From Alphaproteobacteria bacterium (GTDB taxonomy: Bacteria > Pseudomonadota > Alphaproteobacteria > SMXQ01), in assembly GCA_033720855.1 (NCBI GenBank), contig JAWWBR010000002.1, forward strand, positions 972 through 64,971: 64,000 nucleotides of DNA. Reading direction: 5' to 3'. This document shows, in pieces, positions 1,662 to 35,694 of the stretch. Positions within the stretch are counted from its first letter, which is position 1, and the number at the start of each line of letters is the position of its first letter. Position numbers and translations under genes: made by a program. Under the pieces are notes generated by a model that saw nothing but the letters and a program-made list of their open reading frames with translations, was not told where the DNA came from and searched no databases.

Positions 1662-2375
1662 ATGTTGGCGAAGCGAAATATCCTGATTGTCGAGGATGAT
1701 CTGGAGGTCTGTCGGGTCGTCGCCGCGCTGATGGAACAAGAGGGTGCACGCCTCACGCAAGTGCATAGGGGCGCGGAGGCCGAGGTCGCCCTCGGAGGAG
1801 AACCGTTCGACCTTGTGCTGCTGGACCTGAATTTACCCGACCAGCATGGGCTCGATATCCTGCGCAGTATACGTCAGTCATCGATGATGCCGGTCATCGT
1901 GCTGACGGCAAGAAGCGATGACATCGACCAGGTCCTCGGCCTCGAACTGGGCGCCGACGACTACGTGACAAAGCCGTTTTCCAGTCGCGTTCTGTTGGCG
2001 CGGATGAACAACGTCTTGCGGCATTGGGATTCAATGAACACGACGGAGAAGCCGGATTCCGTCCCGGACGCGGATATCGCCGGTTGGGGCTTCGATGCCG
2101 CCGACGCCAGTCTGGTATCGCCTTCGGGTGATCGCGTGCCCTTGACGGGGGCCGAATATCGGCTCCTGCGGACCTTATTGGCGCATCGAAACAGGGCCAT
2201 TTCGCGCCAGGAACTTTCGTTGGTGGTGCTGGGGCGAAAGCTCGAGAACAGCCGAAGCGTCGACGCGCTCGTCGCCCGCCTCAGGGTTAAAGTCAACGCC
2301 GCGGGAAAGGCGGCATCCGCGATCCGCACCGTCCATGGGGTGGGATACGGCCTCTTCACCGACGAGGCCCCATAG
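1662..2375 (+). CDS. OmpR-family two-component response regulator (REC plus winged-helix DNA-binding domain).
   Basis: ORF 1602..2375 on the + strand. I place the start at the internal Met of MLAKRNILIVEDD (1662). REC motifs include LLDLNLPD. The C-terminus matches OmpR-like wHTH (RTVHGVGY). Confidence 0.85.
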   Translation: MLAKRNILIVEDDLEVCRVVAALMEQEGARLTQVHRGAEAEVALGGEPFDLVLLDLNLPDQHGLDILRSIRQSSMMPVIVLTARSDDIDQVLGLELGADDYVTKPFSSRVLLARMNNVLRHWDSMNTTEKPDSVPDADIAGWGFDAADASLVSPSGDRVPLTGAEYRLLRTLLAHRNRAISRQELSLVVLGRKLENSRSVDALVARLRVKVNAAGKAASAIRTVHGVGYGLFTDEAP

Positions 2376-2413: not shown

Positions 2414-5044
2414 TTAGACGACAGCCGCGTCCAATGCCGCGCGCACCTTACGGGCGAGCTCCGACAGGCGGTATGGTTTATGGAGCAGAGTGGTCCTTTT
2501 ATCCAAGGCGCTCGAATCGAAATTGGATAACTCCGCATATCCGGAGGTGTAGAGCACCGGCAAACCGGGATGGCGTTTTTGGACCTCTGCGGCCAGTTCG
2601 CCGCCATTCATCCCCCCCGGCAGAACGACATCGGTGAACAAGAGATTGACGCGCGGGGCCTTTTCCAAGGCCCGGAGCGCGCTGTGGCCGTCGGCGGCCT
2701 CCACGATCCCGTATCCCAGCGCGGTCAAAAGCGAGACCGAGAGCGTGCGGACGTCGGCATCGTCCTCGACCACCAGCACGGTCTCGCCCCGCGACTCGGG
2801 TATGTCGTCGCCATCGGCCTCCGTCAGCTCTTCCTCCGCCTGTACCGAGCGGGGCAGGTAGAGCTTGATGGTGGTGCCAAGGCCCTCCTCGCTTTCTACC
2901 GTCACGTGGCCGCCCGATTGTTTGACAAAGCCGTAAACCATGGAGAGGCCAAGGCCGGTCCCGCGCCCCACTTCTTTGGTGGTGAAGAAGGGATCGAAAA
3001 CATGCTCCATCACATCCTTCGACATGCCCGTTCCGGTATCGCTCACCGCCACCATCACGTAATCTCCGGGCTTTGAGCCGGACTGAGCCCCGGCATCCTC
3101 GCCATCGAAGCGGGCATTGCCGGTCGTGATCGTCAAGGTGCCGCCCTGGGGCATGGCGTCCCGAGCGTTGATGGCAAGGTTGAGAATGGCGCTTTCCAGA
3201 AGATTCGGGTCGGCTTCGCAAAGCCACAGGCCGTCCTGACCGGTAACCTTGACCTCGATGGTCTCGCCCAAGGTGCGGCTCAACAAATCGGTCATCTCAC
3301 GGGTCAGTTTGCCGACGTCAAGAGCGACCGGGAACAAGGTCTGACGCCGGGAAAACGCCAGCAGTTGATGGGTCAGGGATGCACCGCGCTCGGTCGCGCG
3401 CTTGATCGCCGCCAAATAAGGACGCACATCGCCGCCCGACCGGGCGGCATCCTCGGCCAGTTCGACGTTGCCGAGGGCGACCGCGAGGAGATTGTTGAAA
3501 TCATGGGCGATGCCGCCGGTCAGCTGGCCCACCGCCTCCATCTTCTGAGCCTGCTGCAGCTGCTTTGCCGTCTCCCGTTGGGCGGTGACGTCTCGGACGA
3601 TCGCAAGAACCTGATCTTTTCCGCTCACCACCATGCGACAATCGAAGGACCTGTAGCCGTCTTCGAAATCAAGCTGGTATTCGAACTGTTGCAGTTGCTG
3701 GGTCCGTAGGGTGTCCGAAATCCGCTTCTTGTAGAGCTCGGCGATATCTGCGGGCAAAACCTCGTCGACACGGCGGCCGAGAAATTTCTCTGGCTCAACA
3801 AGGAGATCTTCCAGACTGGAAGCGTAATAATCCAAATGGACCCCTTCACGGGAGAGCATGAATATCAAATCCGGTTGCGCGGCCATGATTGCTCGGTATT
3901 TAGCTTCGCTCTCCCGAAGTTGTTGCGTGGTGTGTTGCTTCAAGCGCCGGTTTCTGACCACGGTGACCAGCCAAAAGCCGAGCCCTAGGGTAAGTGCCGC
4001 GATAGTCAGGCCGATGGCGAATCTGTGGGTTTTGGTAATCCGATCGCGGGCCAGCTGATGGCGGTCGTAGATCGCTTGCTTCTCCTCGAATTGACCCTTC
4101 ACCAGGCCGATATCCTTGAGGGCGGCGTGCATCCGCCCCCAACGCGCGTGGTTGATGTGGCCGAGGGTAATGACGTCGGCTTGGATCAGCCGGGCGACCT
4201 GTTCGATCTGAAAGCGATTGAAACCCCGCGCATCCTTGAGAGGAATTCGGCGCGGCAGTTCGGCGGCAATCCGGTCGGCGATTTCCTCGCCATGGGTCAG
4301 GGCGTACCGCCACCCTTTCAGAGAAGCCCGGATGAAGGCCTCGGCGGTCTCCGGAGACTGATCGAGAAGGCGCTTATGGGTGAAGAGAGCGCCGCCATAG
4401 AAATCGACCCCGTATGAGGACGGATAGAGGGCGGTCAATGCCAGGTTCAGTTCCCGCGCGATCCAGCCCGCGGATATCGTGAACCCCGCCGCGACGTCGA
4501 CATTTCCGGCGGAAAGATCGCGCAGGCCGAGCCGCAGGCGAATCGGCTGCGTTCGGATCCGCGCAGGCGGGATGTTTTCCGCCCGCAACATGGCCATCAG
4601 TTCGGGATAAGCCCTGCCATTAATTCCGCGGGTGGCGACCGTCAGCCGGGTCAGGTCGGCGGGTGAGCGCAATTCGGTGCCCGCCCGGGCGTAGAACGCG
4701 ACGGGACTGTGCTGATAAACCGAGGCAAGAATGACAAGGGGCCGACCCTGATCCCGGGCCTTGAGGATATCGATGGCGCCCACGCCAAAATCGGCCCGTC
4801 CCGTTGCGACTTCCTCGGTTGGTTTGTGAAATTTGCCGTCGGGTTCGAACGCGGAGCGAATGGTGACGGTCAAGCCTTCTTCGGCGTAAAAGCCCTTCCA
4901 CAGCGCGGCATAATAACCGGCGAACTGAAATTGGTGGTCCCACTGCAACTGTAGCGTGACCGTATTCGCTTTCGTGGCGGCCACGGCACCCAAAGGAAAG
5001 CCGAACGCGAAGGCTAAAATCGCTAAGCGCCAAAACCGCGACAT
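2414..5044 (-). CDS. Hybrid sensor histidine kinase. Domain order is signal peptide, periplasmic NMT1/SsuA-like solute-binding domain, TM, PAS, HisKA, HATPase_c, and a C-terminal REC receiver.
   Basis: ORF 2414..5230 on the - strand. The likely start is Met63 (MSRFWRLAILAFAF signal-like), whose codon is at 5042-5044. H-box GGIAHDFNNLL, G-box motifs and the receiver motif ETVLVVEDD are present. Confidence 0.85.
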   Translation of the reverse strand: MSRFWRLAILAFAFGFPLGAVAATKANTVTLQLQWDHQFQFAGYYAALWKGFYAEEGLTVTIRSAFEPDGKFHKPTEEVATGRADFGVGAIDILKARDQGRPLVILASVYQHSPVAFYARAGTELRSPADLTRLTVATRGINGRAYPELMAMLRAENIPPARIRTQPIRLRLGLRDLSAGNVDVAAGFTISAGWIARELNLALTALYPSSYGVDFYGGALFTHKRLLDQSPETAEAFIRASLKGWRYALTHGEEIADRIAAELPRRIPLKDARGFNRFQIEQVARLIQADVITLGHINHARWGRMHAALKDIGLVKGQFEEKQAIYDRHQLARDRITKTHRFAIGLTIAALTLGLGFWLVTVVRNRRLKQHTTQQLRESEAKYRAIMAAQPDLIFMLSREGVHLDYYASSLEDLLVEPEKFLGRRVDEVLPADIAELYKKRISDTLRTQQLQQFEYQLDFEDGYRSFDCRMVVSGKDQVLAIVRDVTAQRETAKQLQQAQKMEAVGQLTGGIAHDFNNLLAVALGNVELAEDAARSGGDVRPYLAAIKRATERGASLTHQLLAFSRRQTLFPVALDVGKLTREMTDLLSRTLGETIEVKVTGQDGLWLCEADPNLLESAILNLAINARDAMPQGGTLTITTGNARFDGEDAGAQSGSKPGDYVMVAVSDTGTGMSKDVMEHVFDPFFTTKEVGRGTGLGLSMVYGFVKQSGGHVTVESEEGLGTTIKLYLPRSVQAEEELTEADGDDIPESRGETVLVVEDDADVRTLSVSLLTALGYGIVEAADGHSALRALEKAPRVNLLFTDVVLPGGMNGGELAAEVQKRHPGLPVLYTSGYAELSNFDSSALDKRTTLLHKPYRLSELARKVRAALDAAVV

Positions 5045-5436
5045 GAGCAATGGCCTCCGCTCGCTCTCACGACCTGTTACCTTCCGTGACGGGGACAACA
5101 TCCCGCTTCTGCGGTGTACCGCTGTCGGACATGACCCTACTGCAACTTCGCGACGCAAAATGGCATCTATTTTAGGTGTCGGTCGATCCTCACCCCTGAC
5201 AGAAAATCTGGAATCACATGGTGAGCACAATCTGACCGCCCCAATCTGCGCGTTCCCGACGCCGACCGGGACACAACTCTATCAGAGCCCCCATGCGTGC
5301 GAAAGCCGCGTGCACCGGATCGATTCGACCTATCATCCAAGCGGAGGGTTGCGCTTTTTTTGCGATCCAGACGTTGGCCGCGTGACGGGGCGGGCACTGC
5401 CGGTAGCCAGCGCGATTCTGGCGAGGCGGAGCCGCC

Positions 5437-16021: not shown

Positions 16022-18499
16022 TTGAACACCGATCGCTTTGCAACTGTTGCGTATGGTCTGGCCCTGCTCGGAATCCTGCTGTTGCCATCGGCCGGTGCGG
16101 CCCTGGCGCAGGAGGACGTGCTTAACCCCGAGGTTCGCTACGATGTTCTTCGCCATCAGTTGAGCATGGCGATTCGCGCCAAGAAGCCTCGCGAAACCAT
16201 CGACATCATCGCCAAACTGCGAAAATCGCCTCTCGGCATCAGTGGCGAGATCTTGTTCTATGAAGGTCACGCCTATTATCAGCTGAAGGAGTGGACGAAT
16301 GCCTACCGCTCCCTCGTTGCCTACCTCAACACGGTTGGCCGCAAAGGCCGAAACTACAAGGTGGCGATCGGATTGTTTGTCGAGGCCGAGCGCGCGATCA
16401 AGTCCCGAAAACGCGAATCGGAAGCATCGGCGCGGGCCGAGCGCAGCTGGTCCTTGGCGGCGTCGGCGTACGACCGTCTCAAGCCGCAACGCGACGCCTG
16501 GCGGGAAAAGGTCGTGACCTTCGGCGGGCCCCGCAACGATTCCGCCTGGGTCATGGCGCGCAGGGCCGATGGGGGATTTCTGGTGGGCGGAACCTTCGAA
16601 CAAAAGGCGGACAAGAAGACACGGCAAAAAGCCAGCCGCAGCATGGGGCTGATGGCCTTGACCAAAAGCGGGCGCATGGCCTGGAACCGGATTCCCCTCG
16701 GCCCCGCAGAAGACGGCGCCATCAAGTCGCTGACGGCGCTGCCCGACGACGGCTTTCTGATCGGCGGCATTCACCGGGGCTTCCAGATCGCCGCCCGCAT
16801 GGATCGCAACGCCGTTCCCATCCGCAATCACGACGGCAAGCCCTGGGTCAGCCCCCTGGCAAAAGCCAAAGACGGCTCGATCGCGGAGGTCGTAAGGCTT
16901 GCCAACGGCGACGTGCTGGCGATCGGATCGGAGCGCGTCACCAAAGACGGCAAGAGTCCCCGGCTACCCTTCGTGGTTCGGCTGTCCAAAGACGGAAAGC
17001 CTTTGGGCAAGACCGTCTTTACCGGAGATGCGGCGCGGTTCTGGCACGACATTACCGCCGCCGTGAGGATGGAAGGCGGCGACATCCTCGCCGTCGGCAC
17101 GACCCGCCCGCAAGCCGCCTGGGACACCCGGTCGGGCCTAGGCTATCTGTTGCGCGTCACCGAAGATGCCAAGATGGTTTGGGCGCGGAGGGTGCCGGCC
17201 CGCGGTCAAGGCGAGATCCAATTTTCCGGCGTGGCTCGCGCCAAAGACGGCGGCCTTTTGGCCGTGGGACAAGAGGGCAAGCGCCTGCTGTTGTTCAAGG
17301 CTTCCGCTGCAGGCGAAGAGGAATGGCGCAAGACGCTCGCCTATCGCAGCCCCATGCCCGCCGGGGCAGGCGATCTTTGTGCGGTCTCCGACCTGATCCC
17401 GCAGCTGAAGAAATCCAGCAAGTTCCTCGACCGCCCGCTGCCGACGGCGGACCGGATCGCGGCGGTGCGCGGCCTGGCCTGTCCCCAAGGCGCGCCACTC
17501 GCATCGGCGACCGGCATAATCCGTCACCAGGATGGTTTTCTCGTCCTCGGCCTTCAGGCGCCGGGCCCAGGGGAAAAGGTCGATATCCGGCTAATCGCTT
17601 TGGACCACGCGGGTACTATCCAGTGGGACAAAGTCTATGGCCATGACGGTTTCGATATTGCCACCAGCGCCCTGCCCACCGAAGACGGCGGCGCCATCAT
17701 TGCCGGGGCGACCGATTCCATCGGCGCCGGCGGGCGTGACATCCTGATCTTCAAGGTCGACAAGGATGGCAACTTTGCGAACTGGTCGGCCCTCGGCCCA
17801 CCGGCCGGGCCGAAGCCGGCAACCGCCGCCAAGTCGCCCGCCGAAACGGCCGTCCCATCATCACCGAAACCCAAACCCGGGGCCGCCGCAACGCCGGAGG
17901 AGGGTAAGCCGAAGGATACAGACGCCAAGCAGGCCGCGCCATTGGCACCCGAGGCGGAGGCCGAGGCTGTTGCAACTCCGGAGGAGGGTAAGCCGGAGGA
18001 TACAGACGCCAAGCAGGCCGCGCCATCGGCGCCCGAGGCGGAGGCCGAGGCTGTTGCAACTCCGGAGGAGGGTAAGCCAGAGGATACAGACGCCAAGCAG
18101 GCTGGTTCCGGCGCGCCGCCTCGGCCCGAACCGGAAGCTCGAGCCGAGCCGGAAGCGGAAACGGAGGACGATGGCGCCCCCAAACCGGACGCGCCGGAGG
18201 CATCGGCTTCGCCCAAAGCGGTGATCGAGGACCCGGAGGCGACACCGGCCGCTGAAGACCCCGGCACCCCGAAAAAGGCGGATGCGGGCGCCGGGGACGA
18301 GTCGCTGGGGACGCCGAAGACGCAAGGGCAGGGCGCCTCTCCGCCCGGGGCTTCGCAAAACAGCGACGAGCCGCCCGCAACCTCGTTCCGCTCGATCTTC
18401 GGCTCCATCTTCGGCGGATCGGAGGAAGAGAAATCAGCCCCCACGGATCAGTCCGGCGACGGAGACAAGACGCCGCCGGCTTCCGGCGAGACGGAATAA
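16022..18499 (+). CDS. Large secreted or periplasmic protein. Domain order is signal peptide, an N-terminal helical (TPR-like) region, about seven beta-propeller-like DGG-[FL]-L-x-GG repeats, and an acidic Pro/Ala/Glu-rich C-terminal tail with 28-aa tandem repeats.
   Basis: ORF 16022..18499, 825 aa. The signal peptide cleaves at ALA-QE. Repeated motifs include ADGGFLVGG, DDGFLIGG, GGDILAVG, DGGLLAVG and DGGAIIAG. Confidence 0.75.
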   Translation: MNTDRFATVAYGLALLGILLLPSAGAALAQEDVLNPEVRYDVLRHQLSMAIRAKKPRETIDIIAKLRKSPLGISGEILFYEGHAYYQLKEWTNAYRSLVAYLNTVGRKGRNYKVAIGLFVEAERAIKSRKRESEASARAERSWSLAASAYDRLKPQRDAWREKVVTFGGPRNDSAWVMARRADGGFLVGGTFEQKADKKTRQKASRSMGLMALTKSGRMAWNRIPLGPAEDGAIKSLTALPDDGFLIGGIHRGFQIAARMDRNAVPIRNHDGKPWVSPLAKAKDGSIAEVVRLANGDVLAIGSERVTKDGKSPRLPFVVRLSKDGKPLGKTVFTGDAARFWHDITAAVRMEGGDILAVGTTRPQAAWDTRSGLGYLLRVTEDAKMVWARRVPARGQGEIQFSGVARAKDGGLLAVGQEGKRLLLFKASAAGEEEWRKTLAYRSPMPAGAGDLCAVSDLIPQLKKSSKFLDRPLPTADRIAAVRGLACPQGAPLASATGIIRHQDGFLVLGLQAPGPGEKVDIRLIALDHAGTIQWDKVYGHDGFDIATSALPTEDGGAIIAGATDSIGAGGRDILIFKVDKDGNFANWSALGPPAGPKPATAAKSPAETAVPSSPKPKPGAAATPEEGKPKDTDAKQAAPLAPEAEAEAVATPEEGKPEDTDAKQAAPSAPEAEAEAVATPEEGKPEDTDAKQAGSGAPPRPEPEARAEPEAETEDDGAPKPDAPEASASPKAVIEDPEATPAAEDPGTPKKADAGAGDESLGTPKTQGQGASPPGASQNSDEPPATSFRSIFGSIFGGSEEEKSAPTDQSGDGDKTPPASGETE
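17888..18112 (+). repeat. In-frame 84-bp tandem repeat, about 2.6 copies. It encodes ATPEEGKP(K/E)DTDAKQAAP(L/S)APEAEAEAV.
   Basis: Copies at 17888-17971 and 17972-18055 differ at about 4 positions. A third, partial copy runs 18056 to about 18112. Confidence 0.85.
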
Positions 18500-18533: not shown

Positions 18534-19907
18534 CTATTTACCGATTCGCGGCTTGATGACCGCGATCAGCGAGGGCGCACCCTCGATCCCGAAATCGTTG
18601 TCGTTGAGCAGCGCGATCGTGCCATCACCCAATAGCGCCATGCCTTCCAGCTTCTCAGGTATGTCCCCATAGGCATCGCCGTCGAACGCAAGCGCCTTTG
18701 ACACTGGCCGGATGGCGGACCTGGATACAAGGATCTGCTCGAGGCTCGGCCGTGTCGACTCCCGGTCCCAGCGGGATCCGAGGATATTCGTCGCGGTGCC
18801 GAGGTCGACCGCGAAAAGTTTCGTGGACTTGCGAATTCGTTCCAGGACGAGAAGCCGATCGCCCCCTATGGCCGTCATCGCGCTGATCTTGACCGCGCTT
18901 TGTTTGTCCGAATCATCGCGGCGAAAGCTTTCCGGTCGCTCCAGCACGTAAACGAATTCACCCACTGCCTTTTGCGCGGTTCTGTCGAACTTATACAAAC
19001 GGATATTGCGGCTGCGCTTCGCGTCTTTTGCCCGGGGATTCGCGAGCGGGCCTTGGGTCGCGAAATAGAGGAACCGCTCGTCAGGGCTGAGGGCGAGGGA
19101 TTCCAGGCCGCGGTTCCTCCGGCGCTTGGCGAGCATTCGGGGCAACCCTCCGGAAACCTGGTACCTTTCGGTCCGGATTCCAGACTCCATGCCAAAGGGC
19201 ACGAGTCGCAAAGTGACCCGGCCCGACGGCGATACCCGCAACAGGGACGGCGCGCTCTCATCGGCGATCCAATAGCTCCCGTCGCCCAGCCTCACCATGG
19301 CCTCCGGGTCCACCGCGGCCATATCCCGCTTGAGCGCTTTTCCCTCGGCGTCGAAAGCAGGACGGGAGTCCCCCTTTCCGGGGGGAAGGAAAAGTCCGCT
19401 CAGCGGCTTGCCGTCCCGGTCTTTCAATACGACGCTGTCAAGCACCCGGAACCGTCCGTCGGCATCGAGCCGGAGCGTATAAATGGATGGGGCATAGGCG
19501 GGCAAGGGATGGATGAGGGCCTTTTTGAGGCCCGCGCAAAGGGCATCGCGCGTGAGGGTCGTCAGTTTTGCCCCTTTCTTGCAACCAAATAGGGGGCCGG
19601 CATCGGTGATCGTCTGCAAAACCATGGGCGGCATGGTGGGATGGCGAAAGGCACCGGAACCCAGGCCGGCTCGGAAGCGCAGGCTGATCCCATTTGGAAA
19701 GCGGGCAACCCCTAAATCCAGCCTGGGATCGGAGCTGGAATAAATTTTTGGCGATGAACCAGGCGCATCGGCCGCCCCACTCGCCGTCCCAGAACAAAAG
19801 AGCATTGCGGCGGTCAACAGGGCGCAAAAACCCCTGCCGTTCCTAAAAAACCGCCCCGCGCGCTCCCGGCCCACCCCCAGGGGCGGTATTTTCTTCTGCT
19901 CATCCAT
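18534..19907 (-). CDS. Secreted phytase-like esterase family protein (PF13449-like).
   Basis: ORF 18534..20024 on the - strand. The start is likely MDEQKK... (codon 19905-19907) with an AAGGGGGTG RBS. A signal peptide is present. The C-terminal LEGMALLGDGTIALLNDNDFG is characteristic of the family. Confidence 0.65.
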   Translation of the reverse strand: MDEQKKIPPLGVGRERAGRFFRNGRGFCALLTAAMLFCSGTASGAADAPGSSPKIYSSSDPRLDLGVARFPNGISLRFRAGLGSGAFRHPTMPPMVLQTITDAGPLFGCKKGAKLTTLTRDALCAGLKKALIHPLPAYAPSIYTLRLDADGRFRVLDSVVLKDRDGKPLSGLFLPPGKGDSRPAFDAEGKALKRDMAAVDPEAMVRLGDGSYWIADESAPSLLRVSPSGRVTLRLVPFGMESGIRTERYQVSGGLPRMLAKRRRNRGLESLALSPDERFLYFATQGPLANPRAKDAKRSRNIRLYKFDRTAQKAVGEFVYVLERPESFRRDDSDKQSAVKISAMTAIGGDRLLVLERIRKSTKLFAVDLGTATNILGSRWDRESTRPSLEQILVSRSAIRPVSKALAFDGDAYGDIPEKLEGMALLGDGTIALLNDNDFGIEGAPSLIAVIKPRIGK

Positions 19908-20107
19908 GGGGCACCCCCTTGAAGAACGCGCGCTCATTTCACGGTGAATTCCAAAAAACGGCCGATTTGAGAGACCTAAAAAAACGTTAGAAAACATGAG
20001 GATATCGGTGTGCTTGTTAAGCAAATCATAACCAAATTCCGATCATTTTAAAGGTATGCATCACGAATGAAACAAGTCCTGTTCCACCTAAGATAAAGGA
20101 AATTGTC

Positions 20108-21052
20108 ATGGGTAATGGAAATGCTGCCTTGACTTCCGCCGTGGCCCGCCGCATGCGGCGGGCGAAATACAGCGCCGTCACCGCGGTCCTAGGCGTTTCG
20201 GTTCTTGCCTTTTCGGCCTTCGGCGCCGCCGCCGAGACCAAGATCGTCTTCGGCGCCTATTCGTCGGACAAACCTTCGGCGATGATCGCGCAAGTGCACC
20301 CGACCCTTGATGCCATCGCCAAAAAGATGATGGAGATGTATGGCGAAAAGGTGTCGTTCCGCATGCAGATCGTGCGCGGCTACAAGAAGGGTGTCGATCA
20401 CCTGGTTGCGAAGAAATTCGATATCATGCGCCTGGGCCCCGCGTCCTACGTCATGGCCAAGAAACGCGCGCCGCAAATCACCATTTTGGCGATGGAGAAC
20501 AAGCACGGCAAGAAAACCTTCAACGGGATCATCGCCGTCCACAAGGACAGCACGCTGACAAGCCTCGACCAATTGCGTGGCCGGACCTTCGCATTCGGTT
20601 CCAAGCGTTCGACCTTGGGACGCTTCTTCGCCCAGCTGACCTTGACCGAGGCCGGCGTCCTTGCGAAGGACCTTGCGCGTTTCGAGTATCTCGGACGCCA
20701 CGACAAGGTGGGCCGAGCCGTTGGCGCCAAACTCTTCGAGGCCGGCGCCCTCGAGGGAACCACCTTTGCGAAGCTCGTGCGCAAGGGTGTTCCCATCCGC
20801 GCCCTGGCCAAATTTTCCAACGCCACGCGGCCCTGGATCGTCAGGGAAGGGATGAACCCCGGGCTTGCAGACAAGATTCGGAAGGCCATGCTTGCCGTGA
20901 CCGACAAGGCGGCCACCCGCGCGCTGCGGTTCGACGGCTTCCTGCCGGGCGACGATTCGGACTACGCGCCTACGCGGATGGCAATCCAGGAGAATCATCT
21001 ATTTTTCGAAGGTTTCACGGGCTTCAAAACCCAGCAGCAAAGCCGCCGCTGA
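20108..21052 (+). CDS. PhnD/SsuA/transferrin-family periplasmic substrate-binding protein.
   Basis: ORF 20108..21052. A signal peptide and the conserved PhnD-like core are present. An AAGGAAA RBS lies upstream. Confidence 0.8.
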   Translation: MGNGNAALTSAVARRMRRAKYSAVTAVLGVSVLAFSAFGAAAETKIVFGAYSSDKPSAMIAQVHPTLDAIAKKMMEMYGEKVSFRMQIVRGYKKGVDHLVAKKFDIMRLGPASYVMAKKRAPQITILAMENKHGKKTFNGIIAVHKDSTLTSLDQLRGRTFAFGSKRSTLGRFFAQLTLTEAGVLAKDLARFEYLGRHDKVGRAVGAKLFEAGALEGTTFAKLVRKGVPIRALAKFSNATRPWIVREGMNPGLADKIRKAMLAVTDKAATRALRFDGFLPGDDSDYAPTRMAIQENHLFFEGFTGFKTQQQSRR

Positions 21053-21084
21053 TTTGAAATCAGTGGCCCCCAAAACCCTGGCCG

Positions 21085-22563
21085 ATGGTGAGGGTGCGAG
21101 TGCCGCACTTTAGACTAAGTTCGCAAGTGCTTATTTCCCTGGTCCTGTTGGCGGTCATCACCGCCTTCGGGACCGGGCTTGCGATTCAATGGTTCGAAAG
21201 ATCCTACCTGGTGTCCCAGATCACCGAACGCGCCAATGACAAACTGCGCATCCTTGTCGCGTCGTCGCTGGACGATCTGATCAGTGAGGATGTCCCCCGC
21301 CTGGAGACGACCGTCCAACAGCTGGCGGAGAAAGACCCGAAGCTGGTCGGCGTCACCATCCTCAACGAAGAAAAGGCCGAACTCTTCGCGTGGCGGAAAA
21401 AGCCCTTTCCGCCGAGGGAAGACGTCTACGTTTTTTCGAATAAGGTTGATTTTCACGGCCAGCATTTCGGCACCATTACGATCCTTTGGAACAAAAGGCA
21501 GAGCGAACAGGCCTTTATCCTTCACTCCTACCGCATCGCGGTGTTCGTCAGCTCCACCTGTTTCGTGATCGGATTGCTGGCCTTCTTCGTCATTCGCATC
21601 CTCGTGGTCGAGCCCGTCCATACCATCGCCAATCGGGCGCTCAATTTCCGGCGACACATCTTTGACGACGGCAAAAAAGTGGGTTCCTACGCCTCTTCGG
21701 AGCTGAAGCGTCTGGATGACGCTGTGAACTCGTTGGGCGAACTGCTTCAGTCGCAGGAAATGAGGGAAACGGAACTCAAGACCGCCAAGGAACTTGCCGA
21801 GACCGCAAACCGCGCGAAATCGAATTTCCTTGCGAATATGAGCCATGAACTGCGTACCCCTTTGAACGCCATCTTGGGCTTCTCCCAAATCATGGAATCC
21901 CAAATATTCGGCCCCCTCGGCGACGCAAAGTACCTGGCCTACGTGAAGGACATCAGGGTCTCGGGCGACCATCTCTTGAAGATCATCACCGAAATCCTGG
22001 ACGTATCGAAAATCGAAGCCGGCAAGCTCAGCCTGGACATCGGCCGCGTGCACCTGCCCAAGACCATCAAGTATGCGCTTGGGCTTCTGAGTTCGGATAT
22101 CGAGAACGCCAAATTGGAGTTTATGGTCGACGTCCCCGATTCGGTGCCGGAGCTTCAAGCCGACGAGCTGCGGATGCGTCAGATCATCATCAATCTCGTG
22201 TCCAACGCGCTCAAATTCACGCCGGAGGGGGGAACCGTCTCTCTGAACTTGAAGTGGCGGCAGTCCGAGGGGGTGGAGATTTGCGTGAAGGACACCGGCG
22301 TCGGGATCACCGAAGATAAAATCCCCCGTATCCTGTTGCCGTTCGAGCAGATCCACGACGCCATGACGGAAGCGAACCAGGGGGCGGGACTTGGGTTGCC
22401 CCTCGCCAAGGCGCTGACCGAGCTTCAGGGCGGAAGGCTGACCCTGACAAGCACATTAGGCGAGGGGACCGAAGTCAGAATCTTCTTCCCGAGCGAACTT
22501 CTTCTTACCTCGGACGTGGATCTCCCAAGCGACGGGGAAGGGCCGGCGAAGAGGATTGCTTAG
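21085..22563 (+). CDS. Membrane sensor histidine kinase. Domain order is TM, periplasmic loop of about 130 aa, TM, HisKA, HATPase_c. There is no receiver domain.
   Basis: ORF 21085..22563. H-box [17 protein letters not shown]-box and G1/G2 boxes are present. It sits immediately downstream of the substrate-binding protein gene. Confidence 0.85.
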
Positions 22564-22564
22564 G

Positions 22565-23824
22565 CTAGAACCTCCCGAACCATCCCTCTTTCTTCTTTAT
22601 CTGGCACTCGGCCCGCCAGTTGGCCGGAATCGCGTCGGCGACAACCTTTCGGAACCGTTCGAGGGGGCAGAACCCGCCACCGCAGCCCGGGATCTCGATG
22701 GTCTTCTCGGCCTCCTTGGACACGAATTTCAGCCGCACCGAATAGGCTTTGGGCGCGGTTTCGTGAAGCTCGAACGCGTAACGGGAGCCGAGCGGCGGAA
22801 CGCGGCCCTTGAACAGCGGCCCCTCGGTCCGCGCGGTCTCGATCCCAAGCGCCGCTTCGAGCCCAAGCACCGTGCGCTGATGGCCGGAATAGATGTAAAG
22901 CTTGCGCGCGGTTTTGGGGTCTTTGGCGTATTTCAGGAAATTGCCCAGGACCTCGCCGACCATCGGCCCACCGGTCAAACGGCCCATCTTCTTGCCCAGG
23001 AATTGATGGTGATAGTTCCAATCCGAGAGCAGGCGCAGAAGCTCCATGTCCTTCTCGGTGATCTCGCTGGACAAGGGTTTCTTGTGGGCAATGAACGCCG
23101 TCAGGGGTTCATAGATTTCGTTGATCCCGTAGAGGATCCTTGCCGGACTCTTGCCCTCGTTGATGCCGGTAATCGACGCTATGCGCCGAAGGAACGGCTC
23201 GAAACGTTTCGCCTGCGCCTTGTAGAGCTTGCTCTTGGGAAGCGCCTTCACGAATTGCCGGTAGCGCTGGCAGTTCGCCTGACCGGTCCAGGGGCGCAGC
23301 ACGGCATCATTCCTGAGCGACACCGCGTGAATGGGCACCGGGGTGAAAGCCAAATCGGGGCGCGGTACCGCCTTGAGCGAATTATCGTAAACCGCGGGGT
23401 CCGGGCCTGTCCCCAGGGGGTAAAGGCCAAGCGCCAAAACCTGGGCGGTCTGCAATGCCCGGTCGGCATTGCTGGCCCGGAAATAGACTTCCTTGAGATT
23501 GTATCGCGGGGATATAAGCCCCAGCTGGTCGACGTACAACTTCCGCAATTCCTGGCCGTTGGCATAGGTCTTGGTCACACCGATGGCGGTGAGCTGCCGG
23601 TACCCCATGGGCCAGTCCGTCTTGAGCTTGGGCGGGCTGTATTTGGGCGAGATCACGCTGTGGCGGAACAGCAGGCTCACGGACCTTAGAGTCTTGCGGT
23701 CCGCCTCGAGGGCCTCAGAAGATTGGGCGATCGCCCCCTCGCTCACGATGCTCGAGAGCAATATCGTCGCGAGCGCGATCGCTGACCCAGCCAGCCAAGA
23801 GGAATTTTTCGCGCATGTAATCAT
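22565..23824 (-). CDS. Secreted histidine acid phosphatase-family protein (branch 2) with non-canonical active-site motifs: RHSVISP instead of RHGxRxP, and HQ instead of HD.
   Basis: ORF 22565..23824 on the - strand. A signal peptide is present. The overall AppA-like pattern is conserved (FRHS...P...G.L...G...RT..SA.A...GL.P ... SGHQ). Confidence 0.65.
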   Translation of the reverse strand: MITCAKNSSWLAGSAIALATILLSSIVSEGAIAQSSEALEADRKTLRSVSLLFRHSVISPKYSPPKLKTDWPMGYRQLTAIGVTKTYANGQELRKLYVDQLGLISPRYNLKEVYFRASNADRALQTAQVLALGLYPLGTGPDPAVYDNSLKAVPRPDLAFTPVPIHAVSLRNDAVLRPWTGQANCQRYRQFVKALPKSKLYKAQAKRFEPFLRRIASITGINEGKSPARILYGINEIYEPLTAFIAHKKPLSSEITEKDMELLRLLSDWNYHHQFLGKKMGRLTGGPMVGEVLGNFLKYAKDPKTARKLYIYSGHQRTVLGLEAALGIETARTEGPLFKGRVPPLGSRYAFELHETAPKAYSVRLKFVSKEAEKTIEIPGCGGGFCPLERFRKVVADAIPANWRAECQIKKKEGWFGRF

Positions 23825-24527
23825 GAGACGTCTCCATTGCCATGGCGTATTTCGATAGGGTTTGCTGCTCCATGCCCAGATACCGAAGCTTTTGCAGAAG
23901 GGTTTCCGATATCCGGTCGTTGAACTTCAATTCGACGATGAAATGGGTCGGCGGCACGACCGCGATAAGGTCCCCGGGCGGTACGTTCAAGGTGGTGGAA
24001 AGGGAGCAATGCAGTTCCTCGTCTAAGGTAAGGCGGACATTGTCCTGGAACTGCCCGTTGAGCGCGGTCCGGTAATAGACCACGGTCGTGACCGGGGAGA
24101 GGGCAAAGCGGTCGTGCAAATATTTGAATTCCGCGAGAACCGAGTTTTCGAGTTCGCGATCGCTCAGAAACAGCGGACCGCGTGAGAGAAGACGCCGGGC
24201 AAGATCCAAGTCGATCGGCACACGCCGTTTCTCGACGATGCGGTCGTAGCGCGCCTTCAGTTCCAAAAAGACCGCGGATGGCGGTGCGGACGGTGCGGAT
24301 CTGTAGAGGCGAATGCGGGGCTTGATGCGAACCAAATCGCCTTCGCGTTTTTCACCGTAAAAACGGTAATTGGGCGAATCGAAATATATCGAGTAGTTGA
24401 CGTATGTCCCCTGGCTGTCGCCGTTGGGGTCAGTCGAGAAAAAGCCGCCGATCGTCTCCCGCAGTTCCGCTTTGCGCGTCGCCTCGACGAGATACTTGAT
24501 CTCATATCTGTTGGTGAAAGCGAACAT
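23715..24527 (-). CDS. VTC-domain (polyphosphate-polymerase-like) protein.
   Basis: ORF 23715..24527 on the - strand. The YEIKYLV... motif of VTC/CYTH-like domains is present. The 3' end overlaps the phosphatase gene by about 110 nt in another frame. Confidence 0.7.
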   Translation of the reverse strand: MFAFTNRYEIKYLVEATRKAELRETIGGFFSTDPNGDSQGTYVNYSIYFDSPNYRFYGEKREGDLVRIKPRIRLYRSAPSAPPSAVFLELKARYDRIVEKRRVPIDLDLARRLLSRGPLFLSDRELENSVLAEFKYLHDRFALSPVTTVVYYRTALNGQFQDNVRLTLDEELHCSLSTTLNVPPGDLIAVVPPTHFIVELKFNDRISETLLQKLRYLGMEQQTLSKYAMAMETSHDYMREKFLLAGWVSDRARDDIALEHRERGGDRPIF

Positions 24528-24599
24528 TCACTGGGACCGCGGATCAAGCTTCCTAGCAACGGGCCGTAGAGCGCCGGCCTAAATCGATCAATTGGTCCC

Positions 24600-25289
24600 T
24601 CATGCGTTGACCGTGCCTTCACCGACCAGCAGGCTCACCGACAGCGGATTAACCGCCTGGGACAGCTTTTCCACGAGCTGGTCGTAATCGACCCCTCGCT
24701 TGAGGTGCACCTCATAGACGACGTCTTCCAAATCGTCGCCGGTTTCCATGCGGCTCACGGAAACCACCGACATGCGATCGCACATGGTTTTGCAGAGCTC
24801 CGCAATCCTGTCCCGGTCTCCGGGCCGCATGCGCATCTTCAGGACATAACCACTGGACCGCACGTCGCCGAAGCGCCAGTAATGCATGGCCACCACGACG
24901 ATGATCATGAAGCCGACGAAAATACCCGCGAAATCATAGAACCCGGTGCCGCAAGCCATGCCCACGGCGATGCCGGCGAAGAGAAAGACGAGATCCTTGG
25001 TGTCCTTGACCGGTGTCCGGAATCTGACGATCGACATGGCCCCCACCAGGGCAAAGGCACGGGCGATGTCGGAGCCGATGATGACCATGATCAGGGTGAC
25101 GGTAATGCCAACCAGAATGAGGGCTTGGACAAACGACTTGGAGTAGGAATACCCGCCATGGGTCGCCATGTAGAGTTTGGCGAGAATGCCGTTGAGGACT
25201 GCGGTCAGAAGCAGGGCCAACCCGATGTCGAGTGGGGTCGCCGAACTCAAGAGCGCCGTTTCTTGCAAAATCTGGTCGCTGAAATCCAT
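24600..25289 (-). CDS. DUF4956 domain membrane protein, the usual partner of bacterial VTC-domain proteins.
   Basis: ORF 24600..25289 on the - strand. Several TM helices are present. The DUF4956 signature region is IVRFRTPVKDTKDLVFLF. Confidence 0.7.
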   Translation of the reverse strand: MDFSDQILQETALLSSATPLDIGLALLLTAVLNGILAKLYMATHGGYSYSKSFVQALILVGITVTLIMVIIGSDIARAFALVGAMSIVRFRTPVKDTKDLVFLFAGIAVGMACGTGFYDFAGIFVGFMIIVVVAMHYWRFGDVRSSGYVLKMRMRPGDRDRIAELCKTMCDRMSVVSVSRMETGDDLEDVVYEVHLKRGVDYDQLVEKLSQAVNPLSVSLLVGEGTVNA

Positions 25290-25590
25290 CCTGACTGCAT
25301 CCTCCCTGTAAGGTCGCGGGTCTCACATTCGAAACCGCCACGCGCACTCAACCCAGAACCGACCGCACCGCGAAAGCCATCTCTCCGGTCATCACCCCGA
25401 CACCGGGGGAACCATGGCGTGAGTCAATGCTGTTGAGAGCCCCCAAGGTGCCTGTAACCGGCTATCGGCCATAAACCCATACCTCACACCGAGGATTCTC
25501 AGGCGCAATAAGCCAACCAGCCCGGTTAACAAACTTGGTAAAGAGTTTATTAACAGCCTGTGAATAATTGCAAGTGCATAATTATTAAAA

Positions 25591-25606
25591 GATTATCATG
25601 ATAATC
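25591..25606. promoter_or_regulatory. Perfect 16-bp palindrome GATTATCATGATAATC inside an AT-rich island (about 25525-25650). It is a candidate operator for a metalloregulator (Fur/Zur-like hexamer content) or another dimeric transcription factor.
   Basis: I read this directly from the sequence. It lies about 300 bp upstream of the DUF4956-VTC-phosphatase operon start. A flanking TTAACA...TTAACA direct repeat and a small hairpin (25654-25669) are nearby. Confidence 0.45.
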
Positions 25607-25776
25607 ACACAGGCCTTTGAGCGAATTACGCTAAGCACCTGATTTCATGACAACATAGGGGGGCTTCGCAAGTGCGAAGAGGCCTGTCGCGGCCCGCAGC
25701 GACCCAGGGGATGTGGTTCCCCTGCCAGGACAGACCAAAAATAGCGGTGGTTTTTTGAGGGTGCCCGGAAGCGCGG

Positions 25777-26112
25777 CTAGCGCCCCATGCCGAGGAGCCC
25801 CCGCGTCCACCATTCAGGGCGGCCGCGACGCCGTTTCAAGACCTCGCGGCGACAGGTTGCGGGCACGGGATGCCGGCTTATCAGACGCTCGAACAGCTTC
25901 GGGGAAACCAGGGCGGCGAGCTTCATGACCATCGCCTCGGACAGGTAGGGCTGCTGAATGATCGCAGCATGAAGCGATTCATCGCGGGGGTCCGCATCCA
26001 GCGCGGCCATCATCTGCGCTTCTTTCGCCTCGGCGCTATCATCGTCGGGCTGATCGATCGCCGACGCCTCGTCAGGCTGCCGCGCGAGAGGATCCAACAT
26101 TGAAGAATTCAT
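25777..26112 (-). CDS. Hypothetical small acidic protein of about 111 aa.
   Basis: Part of ORF 25777..26340 on the - strand. The start is likely MNSSML (codon 26110-26112) with a GGAGG RBS. I recognise no family for it. Confidence 0.4.
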   Translation of the reverse strand: MNSSMLDPLARQPDEASAIDQPDDDSAEAKEAQMMAALDADPRDESLHAAIIQQPYLSEAMVMKLAALVSPKLFERLISRHPVPATCRREVLKRRRGRPEWWTRGLLGMGR

Positions 26113-26329
26113 GGGCCTACCTCCGCGCAGATTGTGGCCGCCGTACGTAAAGGAAGTGTTAAAGCCGCGCACCGGTGGGCCCGTCGCGGCCTTGGAACAT
26201 GGCGCGTTAGCAGGTCGCGCGAGCCGGGCCGGACGCGTATGCGGCCAGGCGGAATGCATAATGGAAGGAGACGAACCGTAGGATCGCGCTATACTCAAAA
26301 AAAACGACCGCGCAGGCTCGAAGCGCCGC

Positions 26330-27157
26330 ATGACACACACCGCGGGGAGGCCGACAATGACCGCCAGTCCGATTCGCTATCTCGCGTTCCTCAGCGACGA
26401 TCCGGGAGCGCTCGCCGATTTCTACGCGGGCCATTTCGGCCTTGACGAGCTGGGCCGCTCCAATGAAGGCGACGTCTCGCTGAGCGATGGATTCTACAAC
26501 ATCACATTCCTGCGCCGACGCCCGGATCTTCAGGAATTGCACACCGATACCGGTCTCCACCATGTGGGCCTGCAGGTCGACGACATCGGCGAAGCGACCC
26601 GGGCCTACCTGCGCACGGTGCCCGACGGGGTCATCATAGGTGAACGCGGCGGCCTGCATTTCGGCGAACGCCGGTTTTTCGATCCCGAGTGCAATCCGGT
26701 GACGGTCTCGACCGGCAGCTTCGGGGCGCCCGAGAAGCGTGATCCGAGGCTGCCACGGATCGCCCATATCGCGCTCAATGCGCTGATCCCCCAGCGCATG
26801 CTCGAGTTCTATTCCGCGGTCTTCGGATTCCGCGAGGTCAACACCAGCCTCACCTACCGGGAGCGCGGACGCCTCAACCGCTTTGCCGGCGACGGCGTGA
26901 CCAATCTCGCCATCCACCCGTTCTACAACGACTCCGTCGGCCACGAGGCGCGCTACGGGGTCAACCATTTCGGCTTCCTGGTCGACGATATCGAGCGCAA
27001 GCTGGACGTTCTGTCAAAGGAGATCGAAATCGCGGCTCGGCCGGAAGACCGGCCGTTTGCCGAATACCGGCTGTTCGACCCCGAAGGCAACAAGTTCGAC
27101 CTCTCCCAAAACAAAGGCTGGGAGGTCGACGTCGACAAATGGGATACCGCGGCATGA
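26330..27157 (+). CDS. Two-domain VOC (glyoxalase/bleomycin-resistance/extradiol dioxygenase) family protein.
   Basis: ORF 26330..27157. Two repeated VOC modules each contain LHHVGLQVDD / NHFGFLVDD motifs. Confidence 0.75.
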   Translation: MTHTAGRPTMTASPIRYLAFLSDDPGALADFYAGHFGLDELGRSNEGDVSLSDGFYNITFLRRRPDLQELHTDTGLHHVGLQVDDIGEATRAYLRTVPDGVIIGERGGLHFGERRFFDPECNPVTVSTGSFGAPEKRDPRLPRIAHIALNALIPQRMLEFYSAVFGFREVNTSLTYRERGRLNRFAGDGVTNLAIHPFYNDSVGHEARYGVNHFGFLVDDIERKLDVLSKEIEIAARPEDRPFAEYRLFDPEGNKFDLSQNKGWEVDVDKWDTAA

Positions 27158-34463: not shown

Positions 34464-35486
34464 CTATTGCATCAGCTTCTTGAACTGCGCCATGACCATG
34501 TCCGATGCGCCGAGGATGTCCAGATTGGTCTTGCGCATTTGCTCCGGGTCGGTCGGCGATATGCCCTTCCGCGCCTTCTTGGCCTCGGCCAGCAGCTTCG
34601 GATCCTTGAGCGCGGCCGCGAACGCCGCCCGCAGGATCTTTACCCGGTCGGCAGGAACGTTGGGGGCCGTGTAGAAGGGGCGCCCCGCCTCCAGCGGCGC
34701 CACCAGCAGGCTGGCCAGGGAGCGCCGCTCGGCCGAGACCACGTCGCGCAGATCAACGAGATCGCGCGGCAGCTCGGGGTGATCGGCCCCGAGCTTGCCG
34801 ATGATCTTGAATTTTTCCTCTTTGATCGCCGTGCGCATGGTTTCGTAGCTGCCGGCCGTCATCTCGACCTCGCCGCGGGCCACCGAAAGCACCTTTTCGC
34901 CCGTCGAGCCGTAGCCGGTGATGATCCTCATGGGATAGCCGTCCAGTTTCATCACCATCGAGCGCTGATAGGCGCCGCCGCCGGGCCCCGTGGTGCCGAC
35001 CTTGATCTCCCTTCCGCCGCGTTTGATGTCCTTGAGAGAGTTCAACGCCGAAGTCTGCGCGACAAGGAACACCGCCGTGCTGGACGCGGTGCTGCCGAGC
35101 GGAATCAGATTGCGGACATCGTATTTGACGCCTTTGTTCTTGCTTCTCTGGACGACGGCGATGGCACGGCTCAGGATGGCGATCTCGGTGCCGTCCCGCT
35201 TGGCCCGGTTGTGCATGTAATTGGCCGCAACGATACCGCCCGCGCCCTTCATGTTGATGGGGATGGAATTGGGATTGCCGGGAATATGGCGCGGCATGTG
35301 GCGCGCCATCAGGCGGCCGTAGAAATCATTGCCGCCGCCGGGGCTCGACCGGATGATCACTTTGAGGGTTTTGTCCTTGTAGAAATCCTCCGCCGCCATC
35401 GCCGGCGCCGGGTCAGCAAGCATGGCGGTCGTCGCCAAGGCCGCACAGGTCATCGTGGTCGCAAACGATCGTTGCCAAAATCTCAT
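34464..35486 (-). CDS. TctC/Bug-family periplasmic substrate-binding protein with no C-terminal extension.
   Basis: ORF 34464..35576 on the - strand. The start is likely MRFWQRSFATT... (codon 35484-35486). The Bug core motif is IRSSPGGGNDFYGRLMARHM. Confidence 0.8.
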   Translation of the reverse strand: MRFWQRSFATTMTCAALATTAMLADPAPAMAAEDFYKDKTLKVIIRSSPGGGNDFYGRLMARHMPRHIPGNPNSIPINMKGAGGIVAANYMHNRAKRDGTEIAILSRAIAVVQRSKNKGVKYDVRNLIPLGSTASSTAVFLVAQTSALNSLKDIKRGGREIKVGTTGPGGGAYQRSMVMKLDGYPMRIITGYGSTGEKVLSVARGEVEMTAGSYETMRTAIKEEKFKIIGKLGADHPELPRDLVDLRDVVSAERRSLASLLVAPLEAGRPFYTAPNVPADRVKILRAAFAAALKDPKLLAEAKKARKGISPTDPEQMRKTNLDILGASDMVMAQFKKLMQ

Positions 35487-35694
35487 GAGTCCGCCTCTCT
35501 GCCTAGTGTGATGGGCGATACCGCCCGATAATGCTTTACGCTTGTTGTTCGTCAAAGCATGAGCGCTCGGCGCCATCCTGTCAACGACCCCAGCGCGCGT
35601 CCCTAGACAGCTCTGACCGTCGCCTGTAGCCTAACCGCCAATACCCGACCGGCCATCAAGGCCCTGAGGCAAGGGATCAACACGGAGCAACGCC

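Follow-up and report, generated by a model that had tools for sequence, protein, structure and literature searches.

Do the phosphorus-related genes that cluster in one part of an alphaproteobacterial genome form a system for scavenging organic phosphate, or a different kind of module? The question is raised by positions 18534–25776 of a 64-kb stretch of DNA (hereafter, the window; coordinates are positions within it unless a locus is named), which belongs to a metagenome-assembled genome (MAG) contig of an uncultured alphaproteobacterium. A preliminary description of this region had proposed a scavenging and storage cluster, built around two secreted organophosphate (phytate?) hydrolases. We find that the genes in question are an undescribed variant of a known bacterial gene trio, and not a phytate-scavenging cluster. 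Judged by sequence, the module corresponds to the VTC-DUF4956-CotH trio known from Firmicutes, Bifidobacteria and others, with a protein of the histidine acid phosphatase (HAP) fold and a sensor pair in the place of CotH. We call the histidine-phosphatase-fold protein, whose active site is altered, HAP*.

The six genes of the cluster are as follows:

18534–19907 (open reading frame, ORF, 18534–20024), minus strand: PF13449 "esterase-like activity of phytase" gene (Pfam PF13449, E 1e-45)
20108–21052, plus strand: PtxB/PhnD-like periplasmic binding protein, 314 aa (PF12974, E 2.8e-44; 151.8 bits against a cut-off of 27)
21085–22563, plus strand: membrane sensor histidine kinase, 492 aa (Pfam HisKA and HATPase_c, without a receiver domain)
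22565–23824, minus strand: HAP*, 419 aa (PF00328, His_Phos_2, E 1e-23; 84.8 bits against a cut-off of 23.6)
23715–24527, minus strand: VTC domain protein, 270 aa (PF09359, E 3.6e-29; 102.4 bits against a cut-off of 23)
24600–25289, minus strand: DUF4956 membrane protein, 229 aa, first gene of its operon (PF16316, E 1.1e-14)

A conserved core of five genes

A Pfam scan of the cluster products gave domain matches above the curated cut-offs for all six genes, and the five families named in the preliminary description (PF13449, PF12974, PF00328, PF09359 and PF16316) are all where it had placed them. None of the six proteins scores above the cut-off of an NCBIfam model. The minus-strand trio is tightly packed, with 72 nt between the DUF4956 and VTC genes and a 110-nt overlap between the 3' end of VTC and the 5' end of HAP*; the DUF4956-VTC-HAP* order is found again in more than 25 other loci, in agreement with the operon originally proposed. 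The binding-protein gene is co-oriented with the kinase gene and lies 32 nt upstream of it. The kinase and HAP* genes converge, their stop codons being 1 nt apart (sequence at 22561–22567).

A homologue alignment of the HAP-like protein led to 16 genome loci and 25 metagenome loci, and several contigs were added by exact look-up. Window proteins were placed on the related loci by tblastn, giving 39 non-redundant loci at 52–83% identity; in the synteny counts below, the denominator is the number of these loci with enough flank. Immediately upstream of HAP* comes the VTC gene (28/29 loci), preceded in turn by DUF4956 (18/23). On the other side, all 26 loci have the kinase downstream of HAP* (convergent in 25), with the PhnD-like binding-protein gene beyond it in 21/21. 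The conserved core is DUF4956, VTC and HAP*, in that order, convergent with the PtxB/PhnD-like binding protein followed by the histidine kinase. The PF13449 esterase does not belong to this core because it is found in just 2/15 loci; confined to the closest relatives (L001, L023 and L024; 83% identity), it is a lineage-specific neighbour outside the conserved module. The co-conservation expected of the cluster is therefore borne out for VTC, DUF4956, kinase and binding protein but not for the esterase. Likewise, the pairing of a PhnD-like protein with a histidine kinase stands, but the pair is no side feature: its members are the most constant partners of HAP*.

The carriers are Kiloniellales/Pelagibius-like alphaproteobacteria, almost all loci coming from Kiloniellales, Pelagibius or Rhodospirillales MAGs. 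Outer flanks vary among loci, while the five genes persist at 40–60% protein identity. One Pelagibius genome (L002/L048) has an insertion of HSP70-like and GntR genes that separates the HAP-like gene from the kinase and leaves the set intact. The DUF4956 and VTC genes of Pelagibius overlap by 8 nt. Among the carriers is one cultured strain, Pelagibius litoralis DSM 21314 (L005/L050).

A different third partner

The preliminary description held that CotH is the usual third partner of VTC and DUF4956, and both the sampled loci and the literature agree. Two distant VTC homologues, one from a Lachnospiraceae MAG and one from a metagenome contig, lie in VTC, DUF4956, CotH arrays (L021, L022), in which the CotH proteins bear a signal peptide or a transmembrane (TM) anchor. 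The same trio is reported in C. perfringens NELoc-2 and beside Gram-positive pel clusters, where Pel-dependent aggregation falls when the gene for either DUF4956 or CotH is deleted; in S. intermedius it consists of SIR_1593/1592/1594, next to pel. No match to CotH (PF08757) was obtained among the neighbours within ~10 kb of the module, or in the called genes of related loci.

The two arrangements share (i) an adjacent stand-alone VTC gene and DUF4956 gene (predicted MgtC-like TM part plus ACT-like domain), and (ii) a third, extracytoplasmic protein, here by prediction, from a phosphoryl-transfer superfamily. They differ in that the third partner here has a histidine-phosphatase fold and is not a CotH kinase, and in gene order: DUF4956 then VTC here, VTC then DUF4956 in the CotH trio (L021, L022). 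Furthermore, the binding-protein/kinase pair is always attached here and, unlike in the pel-linked CotH trio, there is no pel cluster. No arrangement like this module appears in the literature searched. A secreted phosphatase had been said to occupy the CotH position; a secreted histidine-phosphatase-fold protein does sit there, but its catalytic motifs are altered, as set out next.

HAP* has the fold of prostatic acid phosphatase and an altered pocket

Human prostatic acid phosphatase (PAP) matches HAP* over its whole length (E 2e-37), and the alignment takes in the C-terminal PGCxxxCPLERF...EC segment together with the four cysteines that make up two PAP disulfides. A Foldseek search with the AF2 model of HAP* (pLDDT 80.9, pTM 0.82) places PAP (2hpa) at TMt 0.87, Francisella and Legionella enzymes at 0.82–0.85, and phytases and Agp at ~0.6. 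The sequence ranking is similar, with phytases and Agp below PAP, Map and ACP6. On sequence and model alike, HAP* is of the prostatic-acid-phosphatase type, not of the phytase type.

The protein is predicted to be extracytoplasmic, in the periplasm, because it has a signal peptide and the PAP-type disulfide cysteines. Its N-terminal hydrophobic segment lies above the hydropathy threshold, with a signal peptide of approximately residues 1–34. This feature depends on the choice of start: we place it at 23824 (419 aa), while in the public MAG annotation the gene begins 26 codons further in (393 aa) and loses the signal peptide. Residues 1–30 are conserved in homologues, and the 110-nt VTC/HAP* overlap recurs in L025.

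Active-site states were read from the residue alignment of HAP* with human PAP and from the family alignment:

PAP R11, HAP* R54: kept
PAP H12 (nucleophile), HAP* H55: kept
PAP R15, HAP* I58: Arg to Ile/Val across the clade
PAP R79, HAP* R122: kept
PAP H257, HAP* H315: kept
PAP D258 (general acid), HAP* Q316: Asp to Gln
PAP T259, HAP* R317: Thr to Arg

Hence, RHGxRxP reads RHSVISP and HD reads HQ(R), and neither canonical motif is present. The clade-wide signature is RHG[IV][IV][ST]P plus HQR, and persists down to 38–40% identity; distant relatives (33% identity or less) are predominantly, indeed almost all, canonical (RHGDRxP plus HD). An exhaustive search over 1.84 billion representatives shows the HAP* clade to be isolated, with scores dropping from 552 to 220, 194 and 151 bits. 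These patterns indicate that the altered pocket reflects selection and not decay, because the substitutions and HQR extend clade-wide to 38–40% identity while distant relatives are canonical. P0327, at 40% identity and with RHGIITP/HQR, is one of the two most divergent HAP* relatives (the other being P0329) and is fused to two Lamin-tail domains, an accessory domain also found on the CotH protein of locus L021.

What chemistry might such a pocket support? PAP and lysosomal acid phosphatase, and the Francisella and Legionella enzymes, resemble HAP* in fold (TM 0.82–0.87), in the equivalents of R11, H12, R79 and H257, in the two disulfides and in secretion. However, PAP-type enzymes keep Arg15, Asp258 and Thr259, for which the HAP* clade has Ile/Val, Gln and Arg, and ordinary phosphomonoesterase chemistry is thus not expected. 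A role as general phosphomonoesterase or phytase is unlikely, because the second motif Arg and the general-acid Asp are absent from the whole clade. HAP* could instead react with, trap or bind a phosphoanhydride-type ligand, to which it seems suited because the nucleophilic His and a cationic pocket are kept while the general acid is gone. In HAP enzymes, the Asp protonates the leaving group and helps to hydrolyse the phospho-histidine; in AppA, removal of the Asp reportedly traps the phospho-histidine intermediate (PDB 7z32).

A parallel in kind is the HAP-fold phosphatase of PPIP5K/Vip1, which cleaves a phosphoanhydride and in which the canonical Asp is replaced and dispensable for hydrolysis of the pyrophosphate bond: the E991A mutant, altered at the Asp position, is more active than wild type. 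Unlike HAP*, Vip1 retains RHxxR with its needed second Arg, and is eukaryotic, cytosolic and specific for inositol pyrophosphates; the likeness drawn here is one of fold.

The VTC and DUF4956 proteins

A profile built from an alignment of 25 VTC family members, distant relatives included, matches the catalytic domain of yeast Vtc4 (3g3q) with E 3.5e-15. The window residues map as follows: E9/K11 onto K200, R71/R73 onto R264/R266, E89/K91 onto E279/K281, K100 onto K294, Y151/R153 onto Y359/R361, R165 onto R373, E199/K201 onto E426/K428, and S225/K226 onto S457/K458 (Vtc4 numbering verified against the natural-numbered chain 8i6v_E). Vtc4 K200, R264, R266, K281, K294, Y359, R361, R373, E426, S457 and K458 align with invariant or nearly invariant bacterial residues. 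These positions are residues of the catalytic tunnel of Vtc4. The VTC protein has no hydrophobic or TM segment by hydropathy, no SPX domain by Pfam, and no signal. It is a putative stand-alone Vtc4-like triphosphate-tunnel enzyme, that is, a candidate polyphosphate polymerase. HAP*-linked VTC proteins form a clade of their own, whose members are at least 43% identical to one another and no more than 36% identical to the CotH-linked VTCs.

The likeness to the eukaryotic VTC complex (Vtc4; PDB 3g3q, 7ytj, 8i6v) lies in the triphosphate-tunnel VTC domain with its catalytic and tunnel residues. In contrast, eukaryotic VTC has an SPX domain and a fused three-helix TM channel domain, neither of which is detected in the bacterial sequence. 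The membrane partner of the bacterial protein is a probably MgtC-like protein unrelated to that channel domain.

This partner, DUF4956, has approximately five TM helices (residues 19–137) followed by a C-terminal cytoplasmic ACT-like beta-alpha-beta-beta-alpha-beta domain (hydropathy; AF2 pLDDT 73.6). Fold searches with the C-terminal domain match ACT domains and the MgtC C-terminal domain, and the TM part matches MgtC PF02308 below threshold (E 0.013). The predicted architecture resembles that of MgtC, in keeping with the description of the S. intermedius homologue SIR_1592, in which an MgtC TM domain is joined to an ACT domain (mBio 2025). The idea that DUF4956 is a Vtc1-like channel is unsupported: the fold searches return only ACT/ferredoxin-like matches, to the C-terminal domain. 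No paper combining DUF4956 with VTC was found in the literature search for that pair. A polyphosphate role for bacterial VTC/DUF4956 proteins is predicted by homology.

The sensor pair

The binding protein has an N-terminal hydrophobic signal segment above the hydropathy threshold. Its best PDB matches are PtxB phosphite binders, followed by PhnD (E 1e-23 to 1e-16; best 1.2e-23), with a distant match to AioX (E 1.4e-3). It falls below the NCBIfam equivalog cut-offs (TIGR03431, 80.6 vs 261.1; TIGR01098, 82.2 vs 112). The motifs RLGPASY, FGxxRSTLGR and LGRHDKVGRAVG are near-invariant anion-binding motifs of the family in the orthologues. No ABC permease, ATPase or phnC/phnE-type gene is adjacent; the neighbours are the kinase and the esterase. 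The kinase has TM helices at residues 16–34 and 151–169, by hydropathy, around a periplasmic loop of ~115 residues, and lies below every NCBIfam equivalog cut-off, including that of PhoR (144 vs 334 bits).

A precedent for this binding-protein family as a kinase co-sensor is AioX-AioS. As in AioX-AioS-AioR, a PtxB/PhnD-family binding protein is encoded beside a membrane histidine kinase, with no ABC transporter. AioX itself acts as the ligand sensor of its kinase, a role that the protein studied here may play by analogy. The systems differ in that the match to AioX is distant, that no response regulator gene is adjacent here, and that a HAP-fold protein is always added here.

Two other features are found elsewhere in the window. 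Firstly, a separate two-component system consists of an OmpR-type response regulator at 1602–2375(+) and a hybrid kinase at 2414–5230(-), the periplasmic part of which is an NMT1/THI5-like binding-protein domain. Secondly, another PhnD-like protein, sub-threshold in Pfam (PF12974, E 7.5e-6, 25.9 bits, cut-off 27), is encoded at 34464–35576(-), near a CoA-transferase gene and tctABC.

What might the module do?

We propose, with a probability of roughly 0.4, that the locus encodes an envelope polyphosphate module, in which periplasmic HAP* would handle a phosphoanhydride-type ligand and would be coupled to a sensor of phosphorus oxyanions. In this model, (i) DUF4956 would anchor VTC to the inner membrane, perhaps via the ACT-like domain, and VTC would polymerise phosphate from ATP in the manner of yeast Vtc4; (ii) exported HAP*, no longer an ordinary phosphomonoesterase or phytase, would use its retained nucleophilic His and cationic pocket, with the general acid lost, to trap or attack phosphoryl groups that carry a good leaving group, as in phosphoanhydrides (polyphosphate or pyrophosphate, for example), or would just bind such a ligand, and could form a long-lived phospho-histidine; and (iii) the binding-protein/kinase pair would report a periplasmic phosphorus oxyanion in the manner of AioX-AioS and would tie the process to a putative response regulator. 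Gene content, catalytic-residue states, export signals and co-conservation are observed; the synthesis of polyphosphate, the HAP* ligand and the signal that is sensed are inferred.

Several observations weigh against this proposal. MgtC-like proteins are not known to be channels and the VTC protein has no TM segment, which leaves the model without an evident route by which any product would arrive in the periplasm. The literature searched holds no experiment showing polyphosphate synthesis or export by any bacterial VTC/DUF4956 protein. Three Kiloniellales loci (L010, L011 and L012/L019) keep VTC and are missing DUF4956, and a further locus, L017, has no VTC or DUF4956 within 10 kb. Of the partners of HAP*, the sensor pair is the most closely linked, and VTC is a very frequent companion; the link to the sensor is the tighter because L017 keeps the sensor pair without VTC/DUF4956, and because DUF4956 is lost in those three loci. 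The kinase has no adjacent response regulator gene, although response regulators do lie downstream in L017. In Vip1, loss of the second Arg (R551A) is strongly deleterious, and a ligand-binding HAP-fold pseudoenzyme exists (flea protein 8gdl, in the Foldseek list). As regards regulation, the best candidate for a canonical Pho box upstream of the operon agrees at 9–10/14 positions, which is the background in random 400-nt windows, and the two AT-rich islands of the cluster (19908–20107 and the operon promoter) share no 10-mer at up to one mismatch and no common operator. Finally, nearly all loci come from one order, and common descent may explain part of the synteny.

The alternative that survives best, which we consider doubtful but the foremost competitor, is a three-component environmental sensor. 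HAP* would be a non-catalytic or substrate-trapping receptor that presents an external phosphorylated compound to the kinase with the PtxB/PhnD-like protein; VTC/DUF4956 would be a co-regulated output (polyphosphate storage) or a mere neighbour, the product of which never meets HAP*. The constancy of the kinase (26/26) and the binding protein (21/21) as neighbours speaks for it, as do two kinds of unusual locus. In L017 (9004–16188 of that locus), a single strand carries genes for a PhnD-like protein, HAP*, a hybrid kinase, a response regulator, a HisKA/receiver/SpoIIE protein, DUF6272 and a STAS protein, an array that looks like a partner-switching cascade; the HAP*/binding-protein/kinase trio is thus co-directional here and followed by signalling proteins, and the kinase is homologous to that of the window from the sensor region onward. 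In the three Kiloniellales loci lacking DUF4956, a second PhnD-like gene is accompanied by a 188-aa ORF whose similarity to the kinase is confined to the TM/periplasmic sensor part (e.g., L019 11404–12967). HAP* has also lost two catalytic residues, and there are precedents in AioX-AioS and in the flea salivary acid-phosphatase pseudoenzyme, which keeps the HAP fold, has lost catalytic residues and binds a ligand. However, 8gdl is a more distant structural match (TMt 0.75), and HAP* has kept its nucleophile His together with most of its phosphate pocket: four pocket residues, the nucleophile among them, do not vary, and the former Asp has acquired an Arg neighbour, a pattern that suggests chemistry, or at least a phospho-ligand, and not a generic receptor. 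Moreover, HAP* belongs to the transcription unit of VTC, not of the kinase, in 28/29 loci, and contact between HAP*, binding protein and kinase is putative.

The scavenging and storage cluster of the preliminary description fares less well, and we judge it unlikely. Two secreted hydrolases would free phosphate, the PhnD-like protein and kinase would sense or take up phosphorus compounds, and VTC/DUF4956 would store cytoplasmic polyphosphate, all under phosphate-responsive control. In its favour, the five Pfam families are present, the binding protein is nearest to phosphite and phosphonate binders, the VTC catalytic residues are intact, and the PF13449 gene adjoins the module in the window and in the closest relatives. 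Hydrophobic export signals were confirmed on the HAP-like and PhnD-like proteins, but the N-terminal segment of the esterase lies below the hydropathy threshold, and its probable signal peptide is read from the N-terminal sequence. The two-hydrolase element itself is weakened: the esterase is absent from 13/15 loci, and HAP*, PAP-like and only at TM ~0.6 to phytases, is without the general-acid Asp and the second motif Arg clade-wide. Nor does regulation or transport fit, with no ABC transporter genes beside the binding protein and a kinase that is no PhoR equivalog. There is likewise no Pho box above background, and the 64-kb window has no pst, pho, ppk or ppx genes. The accompanying statement that this is not a canonical pst/pho locus holds.

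A wider generalisation, which we hold to be very unlikely at present, is that VTC-DUF4956 is a general device supplying polyphosphate as a high-energy phosphoryl donor to the ATP-free compartment outside the cytoplasmic membrane, where the extracytoplasmic enzyme encoded by the third gene spends it. The spender would be the secreted CotH kinase in Firmicutes and Bifidobacteria, and HAP* here. HAP* would then be a polyphosphate-dependent phospho-histidine enzyme or phosphotransferase, in which loss of the general acid slows hydrolysis of the phospho-enzyme; the relocated Arg would fit a polyanionic donor, and the binding-protein/kinase pair would monitor the process.

Least probable of all is inherited synteny without shared function, in which the close kinship of the carriers keeps together five genes that each act alone: the narrow range of carriers, the partial synteny of flanking housekeeping genes such as DUF2336 and the convergence of two transcription units (not one operon) would fit, but the outer flanks differ while the five genes persist, insertions between HAP* and kinase (L002/L048) have cost neither gene, the VTC and HAP* clades are each sharply set off from their nearest relatives, as expected of co-evolving partners, and, above all, pure inherited synteny is unlikely because the order of genes in L017 is rearranged and HAP*, binding protein and kinase are still adjacent.

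Control regions

Two non-coding regions flank the genes of the module:

19908–20107, no strand: divergent intergenic region between the esterase and PhnD-like genes, AT-rich, 41.5% GC
25290–25776, minus strand: promoter/leader of the DUF4956-VTC-HAP* operon (composition, palindrome, inverted repeat)

The AT-rich control region attributed to the cluster is real: the operon has an AT-rich core at 25527–25610 (27% GC vs 63% in the window), within one of just four AT-rich islands in the 64 kb (1281–1520, 19921–20140, 25461–25680 and 56681–56860). The cluster as a whole (18534–25289) has 58.6% GC vs 63.2% for the window. The promoter region holds an inverted repeat (GTTAAYAAAC/GTTTRTTAAC), and the leader is ~230 nt. 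A block of this region, CTTGCAATT...TTAATAA...ACCA..TTT.TTAAC, is conserved with the closest relative, L001. A perfect 16-bp palindrome, GATTATCATGATAATC, lies at 25591–25606; it is unique in the window (0.05 matches expected at up to three mismatches) and is not conserved in L001. It recalls a Fur-type box, and we treat it as a lead. A riboswitch or other structured leader was ruled against by the lack of an Rfam match, a fold z-score of -1.3 (no unusual folding), and the lack of any motif common across leaders.

In the Pelagibius loci (L002, L003, L005, L006, L008 and L013), a conserved 11-bp direct repeat, GAAACAATTCTGTCACAATT, followed by TCTTGGT, precedes DUF4956 by ~215 nt. Its layout is that of an OmpR/PhoB-type site, and it is Pho-box-like; it occurs only within the Pelagibius loci, with no convincing counterpart in the window.

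Surrounding genes

Upstream of the operon, the following ORF borders the promoter region:

25777–26340 (annotated as 111 aa, 25777–26112), minus strand: DUF2336-like ORF (weak PF10098 match)

In the window, the PF10098 match is below the cut-off (E 1.7e-4); clear PF10098 genes occupy the same position in Pelagibius and Kiloniellales loci (L019 8242–8706; L048 5195–5905; L050 5255–5953). By tblastn, at least ten loci have a DUF2336 gene upstream of the operon and on its strand. The literature searched offers nothing useful on DUF2336.

On the other side of the cluster, the PF13449 protein has no NCBIfam match and no PDB sequence relative, and its start is more likely at 19907, which gives 457 aa and agrees with the MAG annotation. 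Adjoining its gene, 16022–18499(+) encodes an 825-aa protein that has a signal peptide and matches neither Pfam nor NCBIfam models, and whose C-terminal third is Pro/Ala/Glu-rich with tandem repeats of ATPEEGKPEDTDAKQAAPxAPEAEAEAV. Antisense ORFs in the region, e.g., 22556–23689(+) and 21115–22356(-), were set aside as high-GC shadows; the one tested, 22556–23689(+), has no Pfam match.

The wider surroundings (recG, mfd, dsbA, tctABC, an M20 peptidase and a glyoxalase-family gene) are housekeeping or unrelated. There is no receiver-domain gene within ~15 kb of the kinase: the sole response regulator of the window is 16 kb off, beside its own hybrid kinase. Further away, 52569–54707(+) encodes a 712-aa protein with many TPR repeats and a C-terminal sulfotransferase domain.

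Significance

Our picture of polyphosphate in bacteria rests on PPK1 and PPK2. Genes for stand-alone VTC domains are also widespread, and their role is still a putative one. The module described here offers two handles beyond those of CotH-type loci: a dedicated sensor kinase pair, and a partner enzyme with an altered active site. The altered HAP* site predicts action on, or labelling by, phosphoanhydrides rather than phosphomonoesters, and the cultured carrier, Pelagibius litoralis DSM 21314, makes genetics and biochemistry feasible. If the locus does encode an envelope polyphosphate module, it would point to PPK-independent, possibly extracytoplasmic polyphosphate chemistry in marine alphaproteobacteria, and would help to make sense of the CotH-linked trios that are associated with the production of Pel biofilms.

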